NCBI RefSeq assembly: GCF_988243305.1
Contig: NZ_OZ547136.1
Length of the DNA: 64,000 nt
Direction: 5' to 3' (one strand)
Shown: positions 1,256 to 15,998 of the stretch, one piece after another
How the letters are laid out: each line of letters opens with the position of its first letter
Numbering within the stretch: the stretch's first letter is position 1
The notes under the pieces: generated by a model
Databases searched by the model: none
Told to the model about the DNA's origin: nothing
The model's input: only the letters and a program-made list of their open reading frames with translations
Program-made: the position numbers and the translations under genes

Positions 1256-2496
<1,241 letters not shown>

Positions 2497-3020
2497 TGAA
2501 CTGCACCCCAAATGTTGGACATAATCTGACATCTGAAGGTGCAGTTTATGAAACATTCATTTGAAGTAAAACTTGCCGCTGTAAATCATTACCTGGCCGG
2601 TCATGCTGGCATCATTTCTACGGCAAAACTCTTTCAACTTTCTCACACCAGCCTCTCACACTGGATTAATCTTTTTCTTCTTCACGGTCCTCGGGCACTG
2701 GATTGCAGACACAGGCGTAGCTATTCTCCTGAAGATAAACTTTGCGTGGTTCTTTATGCTCTCGGGCATTCTGAGTCTCTACCCCGGGTAGCTGCCCGGT
2801 TTAACATTCCCAGCCACAACACGGTTAAAAACTGGATAAAAGGCTACCGCAAATCTGGTGATGAGGCCTTTATCAGGCGCAGGAAGGAGAAAAGCATGAC
2901 CCGTTCTGATGATACCCATGAAAACGAGGCAAACATGACGCCGGAAGAGATGAAGAATGAGCTGCGTTATCTTCGCGCAGAAAATGCATATCTGAAAGCC
3001 ATGCAGGAGCATCTCCTGGA

Positions 3021-3026
3021 AAAAAA

Positions 3027-3027
<1 letters not shown>
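3021..3027 (+). promoter_or_regulatory. -1 programmed ribosomal frameshift heptamer A_AAA_AAG (orfA to orfB)
   Basis: In the orfA frame the codons are GAA AAA AAG (3019-3027). The -1 frame is open from 3027 (GCG CCA GGA ...) straight into the track ORF 3174..3896, with no stop. Confidence 0.8.
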
Positions 3028-3928
<901 letters not shown>

Positions 3929-6222: not shown

Positions 6223-6723
6223 ATGCGCATAGTTACCGCTGCCGTCATGGCCTCAACGCTGGCAGTCAGTTCATTAAGCCACGCTGCTGAAGTCGGTTCA
6301 GGCGATAACTGGCATCCGGGTGAAGAACTTACGCAGCGCAGTACGCAGAGCCATATGTTCGACGGCATAAGTTTAACCGAACATCAGCGTCAGCAGATGC
6401 GAGATCTTATGCAACAGGCCCGGCACGAACAGCCTCCTGTTAATGTTAGCGAACTGGAGACAATGCATCGCCTTGTCACCGCAGAAAATTTTGATGAAAA
6501 CGCTGTGCGCGCACAGGCAGAAAAAATGGCGAATGAGCAAATTGCTCGTCAGGTTGAGATGGCAAAAGTCCGCAACCAAATGTATCGCCTGTTAACGCCG
6601 GAGCAGCAAGCGGTTTTAAACGAGAAACATCAACAACGAATGGAGCAGTTGCGCGACGTGACGCAATGGCAAAAAAGTTCATCGTTGAAGCTATTGAGTA
6701 GTAGCAACTCACGTTCCCAGTAG
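6223..6723 (+). CDS. cpxP: periplasmic Cpx pathway inhibitor/adaptor CpxP
   Basis: Track ORF 6220..6723. The K-12-type protein starts [11 protein letters not shown] at the second ATG (6223). Signal peptide and two LTXXQ motifs (LTEHQ, LTPEQ). Confidence 0.95.
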
Positions 6724-10418: not shown

Positions 10419-12684
10419 AGCCTCCGGGCGTTTTGTCCCTCCGTCAGCATTTACCGCAGGCACCGGTAAGGCGTTTACCGGTGCTTATGCATGGAACGCG
10501 CCACGCGAGGATGTCGGGCGCGAAAGACCTCTTACACGTGACGAGATGCGTCAGGTGCAAGGTGTTTTATCCACGATTAACCGCCTGCCTTACTTTTTGC
10601 GCTCGCTGTTTACTTCACGCTATGACTACATCCGGCGCAATAAAAGCCCGGTGCACGGGTTTTATTTCCTCACATCTACTTTTCAGCGTCGTTTATGGCC
10701 GCGCATTGAGCGTGTGAATCAGCGCCATGAAATGAACACCGACGCGTCGTTGCTGTTTCTGGCAGAGCGTGACCACTATGCGCGCCTGCCGGGAATGAAT
10801 GACAAGGAGCTGAAAAAGTTTGCCGCCCGTATCTCATCGCAGCTTTTCATGATGTATGAGGAACTCTGCGATGCATGGGTTGATGCGCATGGTGAAAAAG
10901 AATCGCTGTTTACGGATGAGGCGCAGGCTCACCTGTATGGTCATGTTGCTGGCGCTGCACGTGCTTTCAATATTTCCCCGCTCTACTGGAAAAAATACCG
11001 TAAAGGACAGATGACCACGAGGCAGGCATATTCTGCCATTGCCCGCCTGTTTAACGATGAGTGGTGGATTCATCAGCTTAAAGGCCAGCGTATGCGCTGG
11101 CATGAGGCGTTACTGATAGCTGTCGGGGAGGTCAATAAAGACCGTTCTCCTTATGCCAGTAAACACGCCATTCGTGATGTGCGTGCGCGCCGCCAGGCAA
11201 ATCTGGAATTTCTTAAATCGTGTGACCTTGAAAACAGGGAAACCGGCGAGCGCATCGACCTTATCAGTAAGGTGATGGGCAGTATTTCTAATCCTGAAAT
11301 TCGCCGGATGGAGCTGATGAACACCATTGCCGGTATTGAGCGTTACGCCGCCGCAGAGGGTGATGTGGGGATGTTTATCACGCTGACCGCGCCGTCAAAG
11401 TATCACCCGACACGTCAGGTCGGAAAAGGCGAAAGTAAAACCGTTCAGCTTAATCACGGCTGGAACGATGAGGCATTTAATCCAAAGGATGCGCAGCGTT
11501 ATCTCTGCCGTATCTGGAGCCTGATGCGCACGGCATTCAAGGATAATGATTTACAGGTCTACGGTTTGCGAGTCGTCGAGCCACACCACGACGGAACGCC
11601 GCACTGGCATATGATGCTTTTTTGTCATCCACGCCAGCGTAACCAGATTATCGAAATCATGCGTCGCTATGCGCTCAAAGAGGATGGCGACGAAAGAGGA
11701 GCCGCGCGAAACCGTTTTCAGGCAAAACACCTTAACCGGGGCGGTGCTGCGGGATATATCGCGAAATACATTTCAAAAAACATCGACGGCTATGCACTGG
11801 ATGGTCAGCTCGATAACGACACCGGCAGGCCGCTGAAAGACACTGCAGCGGCTGTTACCGCATGGGCGTCAACGTGGCGCATTCCGCAATTTAAAACGGT
11901 TGGCCTGCCGACAATGGGGGCTTACCGTGAACTACGCAAATTGCCTCGCGGCGTCAGCATTGCTGATGAGTTTGACGAGCGCGTCGAGGCTGCACGCGCC
12001 GCCGCAGACGGTGGTGATTTTGCGCTGTATATCAGCGCGCAGGGCGGGGCAAATGTCCCGCGCGATTGTCAGACTGTCAGGGTCGCCCGTAGTCTGTCGG
12101 ATGACGTTAACGAGTACGAGGAAGAAGTCGAGAGAGTGGTCGGCATTTACGCGCCGCATCTCGGCGCGCGTCATATTCATATCACCAGAACGACGGACTG
12201 GCGCATTGTGCCGAAAGTTCCGGTCGTTGAGCCTTTGACTTTAAAAAGCGGCATCGCCGCGCCTCGGAGTCCTGTCAATAACTGTGGAAAGCTCACCGGT
12301 GGTGATACTTCGTTACCGGCTCCCACACCTTCTGAGCACGCCGCAGCAGTGCTTAATCTGGTTGATGACGATGTTATCGAATGGAATGACCCGGAGGTCG
12401 TGAGGGCGCTCAGGGGCGCATTAAAACACGACCGGAGAACGCCAAACCGTCAGCAAAGAAACGGAAGCCCGTTAAAACCGCATGAAATTGCACCATCGGC
12501 CAGACTGACCCGGTCGGAACGATTGCAAATTACCCGTATCCGCGTTGATCTCGCTCAGAACGGTATCAGGCCGCAACGATGGGAGCTTGAGGCGCTGGCG
12601 CGTGGCGCGACCGTAAATTATGACGGGAAACCTTTCACTTATCAGGTCGCTGATGATTGGCCGGGATTTTTGTTACCCATTTGA
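10408..12684 (+). CDS. A: P2 A-like rolling-circle replication initiation endonuclease
   Basis: Track ORF 10366..12684. The P2 gpA N-terminus MAVKASGRFVPPSAF starts at 10408. Contains the HUH-type motif EPHHDGTPHWHMMLF and the active-site YIAKYISK tyrosines. Confidence 0.93.
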   Translation: MAVKASGRFVPPSAFTAGTGKAFTGAYAWNAPREDVGRERPLTRDEMRQVQGVLSTINRLPYFLRSLFTSRYDYIRRNKSPVHGFYFLTSTFQRRLWPRIERVNQRHEMNTDASLLFLAERDHYARLPGMNDKELKKFAARISSQLFMMYEELCDAWVDAHGEKESLFTDEAQAHLYGHVAGAARAFNISPLYWKKYRKGQMTTRQAYSAIARLFNDEWWIHQLKGQRMRWHEALLIAVGEVNKDRSPYASKHAIRDVRARRQANLEFLKSCDLENRETGERIDLISKVMGSISNPEIRRMELMNTIAGIERYAAAEGDVGMFITLTAPSKYHPTRQVGKGESKTVQLNHGWNDEAFNPKDAQRYLCRIWSLMRTAFKDNDLQVYGLRVVEPHHDGTPHWHMMLFCHPRQRNQIIEIMRRYALKEDGDERGAARNRFQAKHLNRGGAAGYIAKYISKNIDGYALDGQLDNDTGRPLKDTAAAVTAWASTWRIPQFKTVGLPTMGAYRELRKLPRGVSIADEFDERVEAARAAADGGDFALYISAQGGANVPRDCQTVRVARSLSDDVNEYEEEVERVVGIYAPHLGARHIHITRTTDWRIVPKVPVVEPLTLKSGIAAPRSPVNNCGKLTGGDTSLPAPTPSEHAAAVLNLVDDDVIEWNDPEVVRALRGALKHDRRTPNRQQRNGSPLKPHEIAPSARLTRSERLQITRIRVDLAQNGIRPQRWELEALARGATVNYDGKPFTYQVADDWPGFLLPI

Positions 12685-12943
12685 GTAAAAATACAGCGTG
12701 ATTTTATATGTCTTTGAATGGATTATGCGAAACACCTCTAAGGTAGATGAGGAGCAATAGCGTGTTGAATCAGAAGGCTAAATTGTATTGAATCGTTAGC
12801 ATGTAATTGAAGGCAGCTATTTGATTCGAGTCATAAAAGAGCATCTATTTCGGTTAATAAAACCATTGCGAGTGACTTTATGTCGAAGCATAATTCATCT
12901 CGAGCGAAGTCTTGCTAGTCTTTCATCGGATTGATGACGGGCG

Positions 12944-12975
12944 CAAAAAAACCACCCTGGCAGGTGGTTTTTTTG
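12944..12975. terminator. bidirectional intrinsic terminator
   Basis: A7-ACCACC-ctggca-GGTGGT-T7. The A-run and T-run flank the stem, so it can terminate transcription from either side. Confidence 0.75.
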
Positions 12976-12986
12976 TTTGAAGCATA

Positions 12987-13100
12987 CTAAAGAAAAATAC
13001 TTACATGGATATTACTGACGTTTACTGACAAACCACTCGGACTACCATATGGATAGCCAAAGAGGGCCAGAACGAGAATGCAGTAATAGCACTTCTTCAT
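12987..13100 (-). CDS. 37-codon hydrophobic mini-ORF (candidate small membrane/toxic peptide)
   Basis: Below the track's length cut-off. The minus strand reads AGGAGG-cgat-ATG AAG AAG TGC TAT TAC TGC ATT CTC GTT CTG GCC CTC TTT GGC ... TAG, giving MKKCYYCILVLALFGYPYGSPSGLSVNVSNIHVSIFL. The bidirectional terminator lies 12 nt after its stop. Confidence 0.45.
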   Translation of the reverse strand: MKKCYYCILVLALFGYPYGSPSGLSVNVSNIHVSIFL

Positions 13101-13822
13101 ATCGCCTCCTGTAAGCAGAGGGCAATTTCCGCCGATATATGCGCTTCTAAGGCGGAGTGACTATTGAGCGAAGTCTTGCCCTGAAATAATGCTCTGTTTA
13201 AACGCAAAGTGATCTGGCATATCACCGAACAGAGGACCTGAACAACACAACATATAGTATGTCGTTGTTTCTGGTTGCATTTTATGTTGTGTAATACTGG
13301 TTTTGCATCAAGGATGTTTGAGCTTTTTTTGATATAGCTCAAAGTAAAAAGCAGAGACTACGGATGATAAGGTCTTGAAAGCAATGTAAATTTTTTAAAG
13401 TTGTGAGTGGCTAGAAATGCACAGTTTCAATATGGCGGATTTAAACAAGTAATTAAAAATAGCGACACAAATTCCAATAAAATCATTAAGTTGCGTTTTC
13501 TGTGGAAACTTCGGTGACTCTGAAATTTTCTTTTAGTATCGCTGAGGTTTAACAACTCGCTGCGCAAGTAGTTAGTGTTTTTTTTAACTCAATATTCTGA
13601 TTTATAAGGTTTTTTATAAATCGTGGGCTGGTTGCGCATATTCATCTCGTGTTATCAGCAAAGATAAGCTCTATATGCAGAACTGAATGCATATATGATG
13701 TCGAAAATGTTATGGGAAAACGTGGATTAGTGTTATAGTAATGGCTGAAAAACAGCCTTGACATAAAATAACAACTGTGATATGGCTGTGCATACTTAAC
13801 TTTTTTAACGTAGGAGGCAACC

Positions 13823-14308
13823 ATGAGCTATGCAGCTAAAAAACTGCTTGACCGCTATTGGGATCGCCGACTACCTGTCGATCCGTTTAAGCTTGCTAAA
13901 GCGTGGGGTGCTCGTGTTGAAGCACTTGAGGAATCGGCTTATAACAACGATGGGTTAAGCGGTCTGGCTGTCATCAAAAAGGGTGTCCATAGGATTTATT
14001 TTGATTCTAGTGAACATTCTAATCGTCAACGTTTTACTGTTGCACACGAGTTAGGTCATCATGTGCTGGGGCATACCCAGGACGGAGAGTACCATCGGGA
14101 TAATGTCGGGAATTATTCAACAGGTGCTCGTGATTACCGTGAGGTTGAAGCAAACAAGTTTGCTGCTGAGTTGTTAATGCCTGAGTCTGCTATACGTCAA
14201 TTGGTATCCAGAGAAGGTATTGATAGCACTTTGAGATTAGCAAGCATCTTTAATGTATCAGAAGCCGCTATGCATTGGCGCTTAAAGAGCTTAGGAATGG
14301 CTTATTAA
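13823..14308 (+). CDS. ImmA/IrrE-family (Peptidase_M78/DUF955) zinc metallopeptidase
   Basis: 161-aa track ORF with AGGAGG 5 nt upstream. HEXXH motif in FTVAHELGHHVLGH, followed by EVEANKFAAELLMPE, the characteristic third-ligand/helix block of the family. Confidence 0.85.
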   Translation: MSYAAKKLLDRYWDRRLPVDPFKLAKAWGARVEALEESAYNNDGLSGLAVIKKGVHRIYFDSSEHSNRQRFTVAHELGHHVLGHTQDGEYHRDNVGNYSTGARDYREVEANKFAAELLMPESAIRQLVSREGIDSTLRLASIFNVSEAAMHWRLKSLGMAY

Positions 14309-14335
14309 TTAGCCTTTAACTTTTAACCTGTTTAA

Positions 14336-14374
14336 AATCACCTTTACGTTTGTACATGTAAGGGTGATTTTTTT
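14336..14374 (+). terminator. hairpin plus T7 between the peptidase gene and the 2-TM gene (terminator/attenuator that covers the downstream RBS)
   Basis: AATCACCTTTA (14336-14346) pairs with TAAGGGTGATT (14359-14369) over 11 bp, including one G-U. T7 runs directly into ATG 14375. The 3' arm contains the only SD-like AAGGGTGA for the next gene. Confidence 0.6.
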
Positions 14375-14974
14375 ATGGCTGATATTGATTTATCTGGACA
14401 GTCCCCAGAGCAAGGAACCACTCCTAAGGGCGATTTAGATCCTGATATCCTTATAAGGCGAGATAGACGGGATGGTATAGAGCGTAGAAGTATGCGATTA
14501 GTGCTCTCTGCCGTTGTGCTTTGTTTTGCTTGTACATTTCTATGGCAGGGGCTTAACTTTGCTTTGGCTGTTGGAAATGGCTTGCTGGAAGCGAAAAGCA
14601 GTATTGCCGCAGCGATAACACAAAAAGTAGATACACAAACTTGTGTTTCAGCAGAAAAATGTTCTGCTTTATCTTCGGATCCGAAGATGGCTGATGAGAG
14701 GATAACACCATCTTCAGACACTAATAAAGTTAGAAAATCTATTTCTGGTTTATCCACCGATTGGTTATCGGCCAGTTCTCTAATAGCTATTGTTGCATTC
14801 ATCCTTGGTGTGGGTTTAACTTTGCTTTTGACTCTTCTTAAATCAGCATTTCAACACCCGACAGATAAAGACTTTAGAACAAAGTCGACATCTAATACTA
14901 TTGAGTTGGCCACGCCAATCAGTGAATTAATAATTGGTGTTCTGAATATAATTAAAGACAAACTATCTAAGTAA
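14375..14974 (+). CDS. hypothetical two-transmembrane-helix protein
   Basis: 199-aa track ORF. Charged N-terminus, then hydrophobic helices LVLSAVVLCFACTFLWQGLNFALAV and LIAIVAFILGVGLTLLLTLL. I recognise no family. Confidence 0.65.
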   Translation: MADIDLSGQSPEQGTTPKGDLDPDILIRRDRRDGIERRSMRLVLSAVVLCFACTFLWQGLNFALAVGNGLLEAKSSIAAAITQKVDTQTCVSAEKCSALSSDPKMADERITPSSDTNKVRKSISGLSTDWLSASSLIAIVAFILGVGLTLLLTLLKSAFQHPTDKDFRTKSTSNTIELATPISELIIGVLNIIKDKLSK

Positions 14975-15016
14975 AGCATTAGTTGTGATTTTTTATTGGT
15001 TTTAGTGATAATACAT

Positions 15017-15049
15017 CTCCAGTACTTATTGTTACTGGAGAGTATTTTT
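15017..15049. terminator. hairpin between convergent genes
   Basis: CTCCAGTA-cttattgt-TACTGGAG followed by agTATTTTT. Lies between the stops at 14974 (+) and 15057 (-). Confidence 0.65.
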
Positions 15050-15056
15050 AGTCGTT

Positions 15057-15998
15057 TTATATTTTTAATGTTAGTGAATGATATTCACGAGAGTTCACGT
15101 TCGATGTGATGTAATCGGGGGCGTTAACACCAAGAATCGCAACGAGTAATCGGCAAATTAAAGCCTGCATTTGTTGTAATATGTCATCTCCATATTGATA
15201 ATTGTTAATAGTGGTAAAGCCAAGTGGTTGACCATGAAACATAGCTTCATGAAAGTTTTCATTGCGGATGTTTGTAATGTTTTTTTTACCTGTAACCCAT
15301 GATGGTCGTGGTATTCCATAAGTTTTGCAGATCCACTTCAAGCGCCTGGAGTGATTTAGAGTCTTTTCTGTACACTTGTTCTTTTCTGCCCATGTTAAAG
15401 CAAAGCAACTATCCAGTGCCATATAAAGATACTGGAATTTTTCGAAGCTAAGGTATTGTGGGTTTTGGGATAAAAATAGTGCATGCACTATTGCTGCTAT
15501 ATTTATTGGTGCGTGTTTGGTTTTTGTCTCGCTAGACATGTATTTGAGTGCTAATTCTATAACCTCTTTTTCAGAGCACTTGACCAGAATAAAGTCAGTT
15601 AATTTGCTGGGTTTTATTGGGGTTGCGTCTAAAAAACCGGCATCAGTAGTTGTTAATCTTATCCCTTTGAAAAAAGACAGACACCACACAGCAAAATTGA
15701 GAGTTTCTAGTGAAGATGTATTTTTTAATTTTAGTGAGTGTGTTTTGGGTAAGCCAAATACTCGTTGGCTAAAAGGCATTGTGGATATGCCTCCATTGAG
15801 GTTATATACTTCTTGGTTTCCTGGGTATATCCAACCGTTAATAACATTTCTGTGATTGTTTATAAGATTTGTTTTTTCCGCTAGACCGGGTAAAGTAAGT
15901 AAAGAAAAATCATCAGTTTCAACGTTAACTTCTACTGGATAGTATCCAAACTCAGCTTCAATATCATTGGATTGCTGTTCGTCAACTTTACCTTGCAT
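15057..15998 (-). CDS. hypothetical 313-aa protein with a C-terminal HEPN-like RNxxxH motif (candidate abortive-infection RNase)
   Basis: Track ORF with GGAG 8 nt upstream of the ATG. The codons CGC AAT GAA AAC TTT CAT at 15266..15249 encode RNENFH (R245-H250) in a predicted helical C-terminal region. AT-rich codon usage unlike the rest of the prophage. Confidence 0.6.
   Translation of the reverse strand: MQGKVDEQQSNDIEAEFGYYPVEVNVETDDFSLLTLPGLAEKTNLINNHRNVINGWIYPGNQEVYNLNGGISTMPFSQRVFGLPKTHSLKLKNTSSLETLNFAVWCLSFFKGIRLTTTDAGFLDATPIKPSKLTDFILVKCSEKEVIELALKYMSSETKTKHAPINIAAIVHALFLSQNPQYLSFEKFQYLYMALDSCFALTWAEKNKCTEKTLNHSRRLKWICKTYGIPRPSWVTGKKNITNIRNENFHEAMFHGQPLGFTTINNYQYGDDILQQMQALICRLLVAILGVNAPDYITSNVNSREYHSLTLKI

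Follow-up and report, generated by a model that had tools for sequence, protein, structure and literature searches.

The window analysed here, 64,000 nt of contig NZ_OZ547136.1, contains a P2-like prophage in which 1.14 kb without open reading frames (ORFs) lie directly 3' of gpA, the replication endonuclease gene that ends at 12684. This gap (12685-13822, 1138 nt) had been described in an earlier reading of the sequence alone as an ORF-poor kilobase, and it is equally empty in annotation, with no PGAP-annotated gene in any of the 149 RefSeq Escherichia coli genomes that have it. Two genes can nonetheless be recognized within it, a peptide gene on the minus strand and a small RNA (sRNA) gene on the plus strand, which converge on one terminator. 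Comparative data lead us to consider it probable that 12855-13395 is a self-contained, horizontally mobile cassette of type I toxin-antitoxin (TA) design, in which the peptide gene is opposed by an antisense sRNA.

The peptide gene and the small RNA gene

The toxin candidate is a minus-strand mini-ORF of 37 codons plus stop (12987..13100) encoding MKKCYYCILVLALFGYPYGSPSGLSVNVSNIHVSIFL. It lies exactly where the sequence-only reading had placed it (13100..12987), and so does the Shine-Dalgarno (SD) sequence AGGAGG, 4 nt before the ATG on the minus strand (13105..13110). Across P2-type loci the SD and the ATG are invariant and the 4-nt spacer between them varies in the alignment; within the mini-ORF, changes among P2-type copies are mostly synonymous, and the stop varies from TAG to TAA. 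A phmmer search of 1.84 billion representatives returned eight homologues, four of which are 37-38-aa ORFs or longer calls ending in one. The 37-38-aa relatives have 56-59% identity, and the fetched loci contributed further ones, among them MKRLSYCIILLTLLGYPLGSQSGWSVDISNISVSIVM, MNRLCLCILVLTLFGYPVGSQSGWSVNVSHINVNISL and MNRRDCVCLFVLALISQLVVGQGSWMIYIHQISLSIQVH. Among nine members of the peptide gene the differences concentrate at third codon positions. Since a length of 37-39 codons has been kept at synonymous saturation, with pairwise ratios of nonsynonymous to synonymous substitution (dN/dS) of 0.08-0.5 where dS can be estimated (dS being saturated in the other pairs), the pattern of substitution identifies the mini-ORF as a genuine gene under purifying selection.

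The encoded peptides (37-39 aa, grand average of hydropathy 0.85-0.87) fall within what is expected of a type I toxin, that is, a small (<60 aa) hydrophobic or membrane-directed protein from a real gene. They combine a basic N-terminus, a hydrophobic segment of ~13 residues and a polar C-terminal motif, GYPxGSxSGxSVxVSxIxVSI, and are invariant at M1, C7, I8, L11, L13, G15, Y16, P17, S22, S25 and S29 (alignment A2). The sequence-only reading had described a basic start followed by a hydrophobic helix. The basic start stands; the helix does not extend through the peptide, hydrophobicity being confined to the N-terminal ~15 residues and the C-terminal half consisting of the conserved polar, alternating motif. 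No match to the peptide was found in Pfam (E ≤ 1), NCBIfam, PHROGs or PADLOC, all its database names read 'hypothetical protein', and literature string searches with the peptide and seed sequences returned nothing relevant. Other ORFs of the region were rejected as genes. Those on the minus strand at 13280..13161 (39 aa) and 13342..13097 (81 aa) and one of 37 aa on the plus strand (12821..12934) are unconserved, given a 2-nt indel in the E. coli W type that amounts to a frameshift and unrelated flanks in other loci.

On the plus strand, the sequence-only reading had seen no convincing promoter by eye. A consensus scan lists one at 12866-12894, composed of the -35 element TTGCGA (12866-12871), a 17-nt spacer and the -10 element CATAAT (12889-12894), and an A-rich block, TAATAAAA, precedes it at 12855-12862. 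The -35 element (as TTGCGR), the spacer length and the -10 element are invariant in P2, plasmid, inovirus, telomere-phage and conjugative-element copies whose flanks have diverged. The A-rich block is nearly invariant, with single-base variants in Klebsiella plasmids (TAATAAAT) and in locus L042 (CAATAAAA; L-numbers are the labels of fetched homologous loci). Hence, 12855..12894 is a putative plus-strand promoter from which, judging by the position of TTGCGA-17-CATAAT, the RNA would start near 12902, at or next to the first base of a 14-nt repeat. This repeat, the seed of the sRNA, starts 6-7 nt downstream of the -10 element across copies, and 7 nt downstream in the window.

The predicted sRNA, our antitoxin candidate, is ~73-75 nt long (12902..12976, plus strand) and comprises the seed (12902-12916), a middle hairpin (12918-12942) and the terminator with its U-run (12944-12976). 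Its predicted minimum free energy in the window is -31.6 kcal/mol (z = -4.8). Ten distinct versions of 66-75 nt have in common a single-stranded seed, a middle hairpin and the invariant terminator; the sequence of the middle hairpin varies, and its pairing is kept in nine distinct homologues through compensatory changes in four pairs. Promoter elements, seed and terminator are also retained in contexts without gpA. By these comparative criteria the plus-strand RNA is an independent sRNA gene.

The terminator itself (12944..12975, both strands) is a bidirectional intrinsic terminator of the form A7-CCACC-CTGGCA-GGTGG-T7. Its 13-nt arms (12944-12956 and 12963-12975) are 100% complementary around a 6-nt loop, and the hairpin is invariant, loop included, in all family members. 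This A7-stem-T7 element, which the sequence-only reading had noted, begins 11-12 nt past the mini-ORF stop. It is the first strong terminator past gpA and is positioned to end both convergent transcripts.

Upstream of the mini-ORF, RNAalifold predicts for nine leaders two strong hairpins and a multibranch containing the second copy of the 14-nt repeat, the target. Compensatory change is evident in hairpin SL2 (CUCUGUU-GGUGAU...AUCACU-AACAGAG; 13192..13234, minus strand, helices 1-2), in which five of the seven outer pairs have changed on both sides, and in hairpin SL3 (UCCGCC...GGCGGA; 13128..13156, minus strand, helix 5), which lies between target and SD and has the compensatory variants CCACC/GGTGG and CCTTCAG/CTGAAGG. 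In the leader alignment 94% of cells are paired, as opposed to 40-51% when the partners are slid by 1-3 columns, and ten pairs show changes on both sides, a number reached by none of 500 shuffles. An invariant G·U pair, which would be A·C on the other strand, identifies the minus strand as the RNA. The substitution pattern thus marks the mRNA leader as a covarying structured RNA. A C-rich anti-SD stretch, CCCUCU (13122-13117, minus strand), precedes the SD, and the SD region is predicted to be partly paired, with a probability of being unpaired of 0.2-0.55 in eight homologues.

The promoter of this mRNA is a more tentative assignment. A candidate -10 element, TAAAAT, lies at 13284..13279 on the minus strand (promoter feature 13272..13284) and is kept as TARAAT in 38 of 38 distinct upstream sequences; the -35 element is weak (TGCAAA). 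An mRNA starting near 13272, as predicted from this element, would have a leader of ~172 nt. The alignment also reveals conserved blocks further upstream on the same strand (TTTGATGCAAA, AAACAT, ATCAAWAAA, TTTTTACYTTG and TTTACAT; 13285..13395), which form the right-hand end of the cassette and may represent an UP element, regulator sites or an alternative promoter (TTGnnC-17-AAACAT). Inspection by eye gave no convincing match to a LexA box, an Ogr-type late promoter or an IHF site near the mRNA promoter. In E. coli CUPS TF 6/1_01 (L009:4100-4140) an ISVsa5 element of the IS4 family has landed where the -35 of the mRNA promoter is predicted; it leaves sRNA, ORF and leader undamaged, and gpA of the same prophage is truncated.

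Proposed seed-target pairing

The 14-mer GAGCGAAGTCTTGC occurs exactly twice on the plus strand of the 64-kb window, at 12902-12915 and 13166-13179, as the sequence-only reading had reported. Its estimate that such a repeat is unlikely by chance is borne out by 100 shuffles, from which 0.02 matches with at most one mismatch are expected and none of which gave two. The copies are spaced 264 nt apart (repeat family D2). Copy 1 (12902..12915, plus strand) is the sRNA seed; copy 2 (13166..13179), read on the minus strand, is the target GCAAGACUUCGCUC in the mRNA leader, 66-79 nt 5' of the AUG. The same reading had proposed that a plus-strand RNA pairs through the 14-mer with the 5' untranslated region of the convergent mini-ORF mRNA, and had listed loss of the repeat in homologous loci among the findings that would refute this. 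Comparative sequence data support the pairing: the 14-mer is kept and, when changed, it is changed in both copies.

Comparing copy 1 with copy 2 locus by locus yields 15 distinct cognate pairs, with 203 Watson-Crick pairs, six G·U pairs and one mismatch in the 14-nt core, this sole mismatch being at the terminal position in retron-Ec48-type loci. In five loci (L057, L059, L102, L083 and L086) both sites have the alternative seed GAGCAAAGCCTTAC, which differs from the window 14-mer by three substitutions, each mirrored in the partner copy. The single-copy differences fall at positions 9, 13 and 14, and all six are T in copy 1 and C in copy 2, or G and A, respectively. These combinations give U·G or G·U only if the sRNA is read from the plus strand and the mRNA from the minus strand; the opposite orientation would produce mismatches, either C·A or A·C. 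The match between the two sites reaches 16-17 nt in diverged copies (TGAGCGAAGTCTTGYCAC). Predicted duplex energies are -32 to -36 kcal/mol for the A-type sRNA with its cognate leader versus -14 to -17 kcal/mol with the G-type leader, and under this model the A-type sRNA is unable to pair with the G-type mRNA. The 3' half of the target, UCGCUC, which is complementary to the first six bases of the sRNA, falls in a predicted hairpin loop, with a probability of being unpaired of 0.9-1.0 in the window mRNA and of 0.8-1.0 in most homologues.

A pairing partner for the seed within the sRNA was also considered and rejected: the predicted 5-bp internal hairpin is broken in the A-type variant, where it would contain CA pairs, and the covariation of the seed is therefore intermolecular. 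In L057, moreover, the two genes are ~900 bp apart (1187 nt from copy to copy) and the variant seed is still present at both sites, which argues that pairing acts in trans. Judged by their substitutions, the two 14-mers co-evolve as an RNA duplex, and complementarity between the toxin mRNA and an adjacent RNA gene, a defining trait of type I TA systems, has been kept in evolution. Locus L057 (4623-6000, an uncultured Enterobacter metagenome-assembled genome) has a 217-aa ORF, with no Pfam match, between its sRNA and peptide genes; its terminator hairpin is duplicated, and each of the two genes has its own copy.

Mobility and genomic setting

The mobile unit spans ~570 bp (12855-13395). Homology among P2-type, plasmid, inovirus and telomere-phage copies stops at its edges, and the unit is kept at 60-75% identity across these unrelated elements. 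Of 5426 complete E. coli genomes, 149 have the cassette in P2-like prophages, the number in which the 1138-nt gap is present. The gpA gene occurs at 2030 places in 1724 of the E. coli genomes, and the stretch is found at 152 of these places; being present at only ~7% of P2-type gpA loci, it is accessory. In the P2-type alignment the first ~200 nt are variable, and the sequence then becomes near-invariant from the promoter through sRNA, terminator, ORF and leader.

Beyond P2-type prophages, the cassette is found in an N15-like telomere phage-plasmid (L019) that has TelK and a CI-like repressor, in filamentous phages, where it adjoins Zot and secretin genes, and in elements (L057, L059) that also contain traI, a dsbA-like gene and an integrase. 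A blastn search of PLSDB matched 519 plasmid records, a part of which are probably ColE1-type plasmids that match through the terminator only; 397 of the 519 are near-identical to the Klebsiella version and are mostly conjugative plasmids of incompatibility group F (IncF). The cassette is unannotated on the matching PLSDB plasmids and almost never annotated overall; in E. coli W the ORF has the annotation ECW_m2278. At no locus found was the ORF seen without the sRNA. Such a distribution over phages and plasmids is typical of addiction or type I TA modules, and to the extent that sequence context can tell, it speaks for this kind of system. Klebsiella pneumoniae MGH 78578, for which differential RNA sequencing and RIL-seq (in which interacting RNAs are ligated and sequenced) data exist (PMC10907235), has no cassette on pKPN3, the one plasmid checked among its replicons. 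In K. pneumoniae pGN-2 (L082:1-3346) the cassette lies ~1.7 kb from an operon resembling a cyclic-oligonucleotide-based anti-phage signalling system (CBASS), with a nucleotidyltransferase, a ThiF-type E1, a JAB/MPN protein and a 3'-5' exonuclease, a position that echoes the placing of the cassette beside defence cargo in P2 prophages. One metagenome contig (L106:3355-3438 and 6277-6358) has two cassettes, with different sRNA and peptide variants.

In the window, the cassette lies between gpA and the portal gene, in an accessory region that varies among P2-type phages. It is followed by 420 nt of ORF-free DNA (13400-13822) and by a three-gene hotspot cargo (13823-15998), after which comes the portal gene on the minus strand. 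The cargo encodes a CapP-like M78 metalloprotease (13823-14308), which matches PADLOC capP at 1e-30 and lacks a CapH-like helix-turn-helix partner in 13823-15998, a 199-aa membrane protein (phrog_8096) and a convergent 313-aa protein (phrog_5937). Prophages with different cargo have no more than the first ~765 nt of the gap in common, and the cargo beside the cassette varies: the ImmA/CapP set, retron Ec48, an AAA-ATPase pair (E. coli W), a 333-aa protein or none (EC12). In E. coli AHB22 (L005:4838-6726) the slot to the right of the cassette is taken by retron Ec48, with its reverse transcriptase and membrane effector. On the other side, the ~170 nt that separate the sRNA promoter from the end of gpA (12685-12850) form two well-separated haplotypes in P2-type prophages and are missing from non-P2 copies. 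No strong terminator was found in the window sequence between gpA and 12944, and early-operon transcripts should therefore run into the sRNA sequence. More than 20 complete E. coli assemblies start exactly at the P2 gpA start codon (e.g. NZ_CP154401.1, positions 1-2277), as revealed by matches of the gap at 2278..3414; these records were apparently rotated onto the prophage replication gene, rather than onto dnaA.

Proposed mechanism and alternative explanations

Comparative sequence analysis is what establishes the coding status of the peptide, the structure of the sRNA gene and of the leader, and the co-evolution of the pairing sites. From the same sequences we infer the transcription starts, the repression and its mechanism, and the toxicity of the peptide, and 'toxin-antitoxin' is for this reason a term deduced from design. 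Under this design, a minus-strand mRNA of ~330 nt, with a structured leader of ~172 nt, a partly sequestered SD and the 37-codon ORF, would be countered by a plus-strand sRNA of ~73 nt made from a constitutive promoter. The single-stranded 5' end of the sRNA (GAGCGAAGUCUUGCU) would form with the leader a duplex of 14-17 bp, 66-79 nt 5' of the AUG, with UCGCUC, exposed in a loop, as the probable starting point. On the model of tisB/IstR-1, zorO/OrzO and timP/TimR, the duplex might block ribosome loading at a standby-type site, trigger RNase III cleavage, or both, and a membrane-damaging peptide would stay off as long as synthesis of the labile sRNA continues. A further source of the antitoxin sequence in P2-type prophages would be the 3' end of the early-operon transcript that passes through gpA.

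Several points weigh against this interpretation. The mRNA promoter is weak by consensus and was not called by the consensus scan, which makes its start site a guess. The duplex would form far from the ribosome-binding site, and the presumed route of repression is drawn from analogy. The hydrophobic stretch of ~13 residues is short for a transmembrane helix, and type I toxins do not usually have a polar C-terminus conserved so strongly, a feature that could reflect some specific role other than toxicity. Finally, only two seed haplotypes were found, and one evolutionary event may account for the covariation at all three positions.

The alternative that survives best, to which we grant a modest share of the probability, keeps the small protein and its sRNA and dispenses with toxicity. 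The peptide would then be cargo, an effector located in the membrane or periplasm (serving, for example, in superinfection or entry exclusion, or as a modulator of a host membrane protein) whose dose is set by the sRNA. The combination of a conserved polar C-terminal motif with a signal-peptide-like N-terminus suggests a specific interaction, and the cassette resides in a P2 accessory hotspot, at times as the sole cargo (L007). Deletion of timR with native timP kept leaves growth unaffected in the TimP/TimR system (PMC7667032), which indicates that such pairs need not kill at native levels. On the other hand, silencing in multiple layers, through a sequestered SD, a long structured leader and a weak mRNA promoter set against a strong sRNA promoter, is a hallmark of toxic products. 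The constant company of ORF and sRNA and the enrichment on large conjugative plasmids and on a phage-plasmid, carriers that profit from post-segregational killing, also argue for a toxin.

A second alternative would reverse the sign of regulation, with pairing opening helix 3 (GGC/GCC) and the SD-sequestering fold, so that the plus-strand RNA or the 3' untranslated region of the lytic gpA transcript turns the peptide on. The target does overlap the 5' arm of the helix by which the leader multibranch is closed just upstream of the anti-SD, and the P2 early lytic transcript, meeting no strong terminator before 12944, would include the seed. Nonetheless, we regard activation as improbable: the characterized pairs with this layout (TimR, IstR-1, OrzO and OhsC; PMC7667032) all repress, and the sRNA promoter looks constitutive and strong and is retained on plasmids, which have no lytic cycle.

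It appears slightly less probable still that the 14-mers are sites in DNA (operators, or recombination or binding sites) read by one protein, RNA pairing being incidental. Direct repeats that change jointly are also expected of paired protein-binding sites, and the small number of known haplotypes is compatible with this view. A DNA model does not predict, however, that all six single-copy differences should be transitions preserving G·U for a plus-strand sRNA and a minus-strand mRNA. Copy 1, furthermore, coincides with the +1 predicted for a conserved promoter, and copy 2 is in the loop of a covarying RNA. The cassette, moreover, encodes no DNA-binding protein and yet is present in five unrelated kinds of mobile element, and the copies in L057 are 1187 bp apart.

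That nothing here is functional, the region being hotspot DNA in decay in which a repeat arose by chance, the ORF is spurious and the terminator is that of the early operon, might be suggested by the lack of PGAP genes in 149 genomes and of matches in Rfam, Pfam, NCBIfam, PHROGs and PADLOC, but this reading is refuted by the comparative data, namely a repeat beyond chance expectation, an ORF under purifying selection, covariation in the RNAs of both strands and a 570-bp unit kept in unrelated elements with boundaries at the cassette edges. A degraded pseudogene or backbone spacer was rejected on similar grounds: the ~200 nt past gpA are variable, but 12855-13395 is conserved across unrelated elements.

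Returning to the TA design, a more ambitious proposal can be outlined, which we put forward as speculative and rather doubtful as a whole. The cassette might represent an unrecognized, widely mobile type I TA family, used by P2-type prophages for abortive infection or for competition between elements, and by Klebsiella IncF plasmids and phage-plasmids for post-segregational killing. Its par-like architecture of convergent genes and direct repeats would be new to enterobacteria, and the antitoxin sequence in the 3' end of the gpA transcript would exempt the lytic programme of the prophage. If the peptide is toxic, another family would join the short list of enterobacterial type I TA systems. 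Among sequenced Klebsiella plasmids ~400 have the family, and many of these are conjugative IncF plasmids of large size from clinical isolates; annotation pipelines have skipped it. It may have a bearing on plasmid persistence, on the biology of phage hotspots and on how 'non-coding' gaps beside defence cargo are read. More generally, the G-type seeds, wobble intermediates and A-type seeds constitute a natural compensatory series for the evolution of sRNA-target specificity. Even with a non-toxic peptide, the cassette would be a clean new pair of small protein and sRNA.

Comparison with known systems

In function, the closest analogue of the cassette is timP/TimR (formerly ryfA/RyfB, STnc2070) of Salmonella and E. 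coli. TimP is a toxin of 38-41 aa in which a basic N-terminus is followed by a hydrophobic, signal-like stretch containing CI[VL]L and by a polar C-terminus rich in Ser and Asn; its leader measures ~144 nt (ORF at +145), the extreme 5' end of TimR pairs over ~18 nt inside it, far from the ribosome-binding site, and TimR and its target covary between species (PMC7667032). The cassette resembles this system in its small, N-terminally hydrophobic peptide, its long leader, its terminator-ended sRNA pairing by the 5' end and its covariation. It differs in that timR is divergent from, and upstream of, timP in K-12, whereas the genes of the cassette converge on a shared terminator, and in that timPR is a fixed chromosomal locus (sseA-sseB), whereas the cassette travels on phages and plasmids. 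Homology to TimP was rejected: hhalign gave a probability of 6%, with 11 N-terminal residues aligned only. None of five family peptides matched NCBIfam NF040796 (toxic_TimP) at E ≤ 10, a model to which K-12 TimP scores 86.8 bits, and the cassette has no match to Rfam ryfA (RF00126) at E ≤ 10.

The systems tisB/IstR-1, zorO/OrzO, shoB/OhsC and dinQ/AgrB share with the cassette an sRNA seed, a distal site in a long structured leader, a sequestered SD and a small hydrophobic peptide, but they are divergent and chromosomal, as opposed to convergent and mobile. No similarity in sequence or RNA family to tisB/IstR-1-type systems emerged, the only matches of the cassette in Rfam at E ≤ 10 being weak and terminator-driven, and the hok/sok, Ldr, Ibs, ShoB, TisB, ZorO and DinQ families likewise gave no Pfam, NCBIfam or Rfam match.

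A weak Rfam match to ColE1 RNAI (RF00106) has its origin in the terminator, as AAAAACCACC-CTGGCA-GGTGGTTTTT is identical to the RNAI/RNAII stem-loop of one subgroup of ColE1-like plasmids. Kinship with RNAI was rejected. The scores of 27.8 (minus strand) and 22.2 bits fall short of the gathering threshold of 47 and concern the hairpin only, the flanks being unrelated, and the cassette lacks a replication primer context. The 26-nt terminator hairpin was also seen on contigs of 0.4-3.9 kb (L047-L056, L060-L081) assigned to Streptomyces, Micromonospora, Kocuria, Chloroflexota, Clostridium, Hymenobacter and others, which look like plasmid contamination.

In architecture, the closest system is par (fst/RNA II) of the Enterococcus plasmid pAD1, a plasmid-borne stabilization module in which a toxin mRNA and an antitoxin RNA are convergent and end at one bidirectional intrinsic terminator, and in which direct DNA repeats on either side of the terminator create the complementarity. 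Convergent genes, direct repeats and a shared bidirectional terminator are all present in the cassette. The two nonetheless differ in their repeats, since par has two (DRa and DRb), one of which overlaps the initiation region of fst, and the cassette has a single one, with its target 66-79 nt 5' of the AUG. They also differ in host range, which for the cassette is Gram-negative, and in their peptides, for the absence of any Pfam match (E ≤ 1) implies that the cassette peptide has no Fst match and falls outside the Fst family. The cassette belongs to no named family among the libraries searched.

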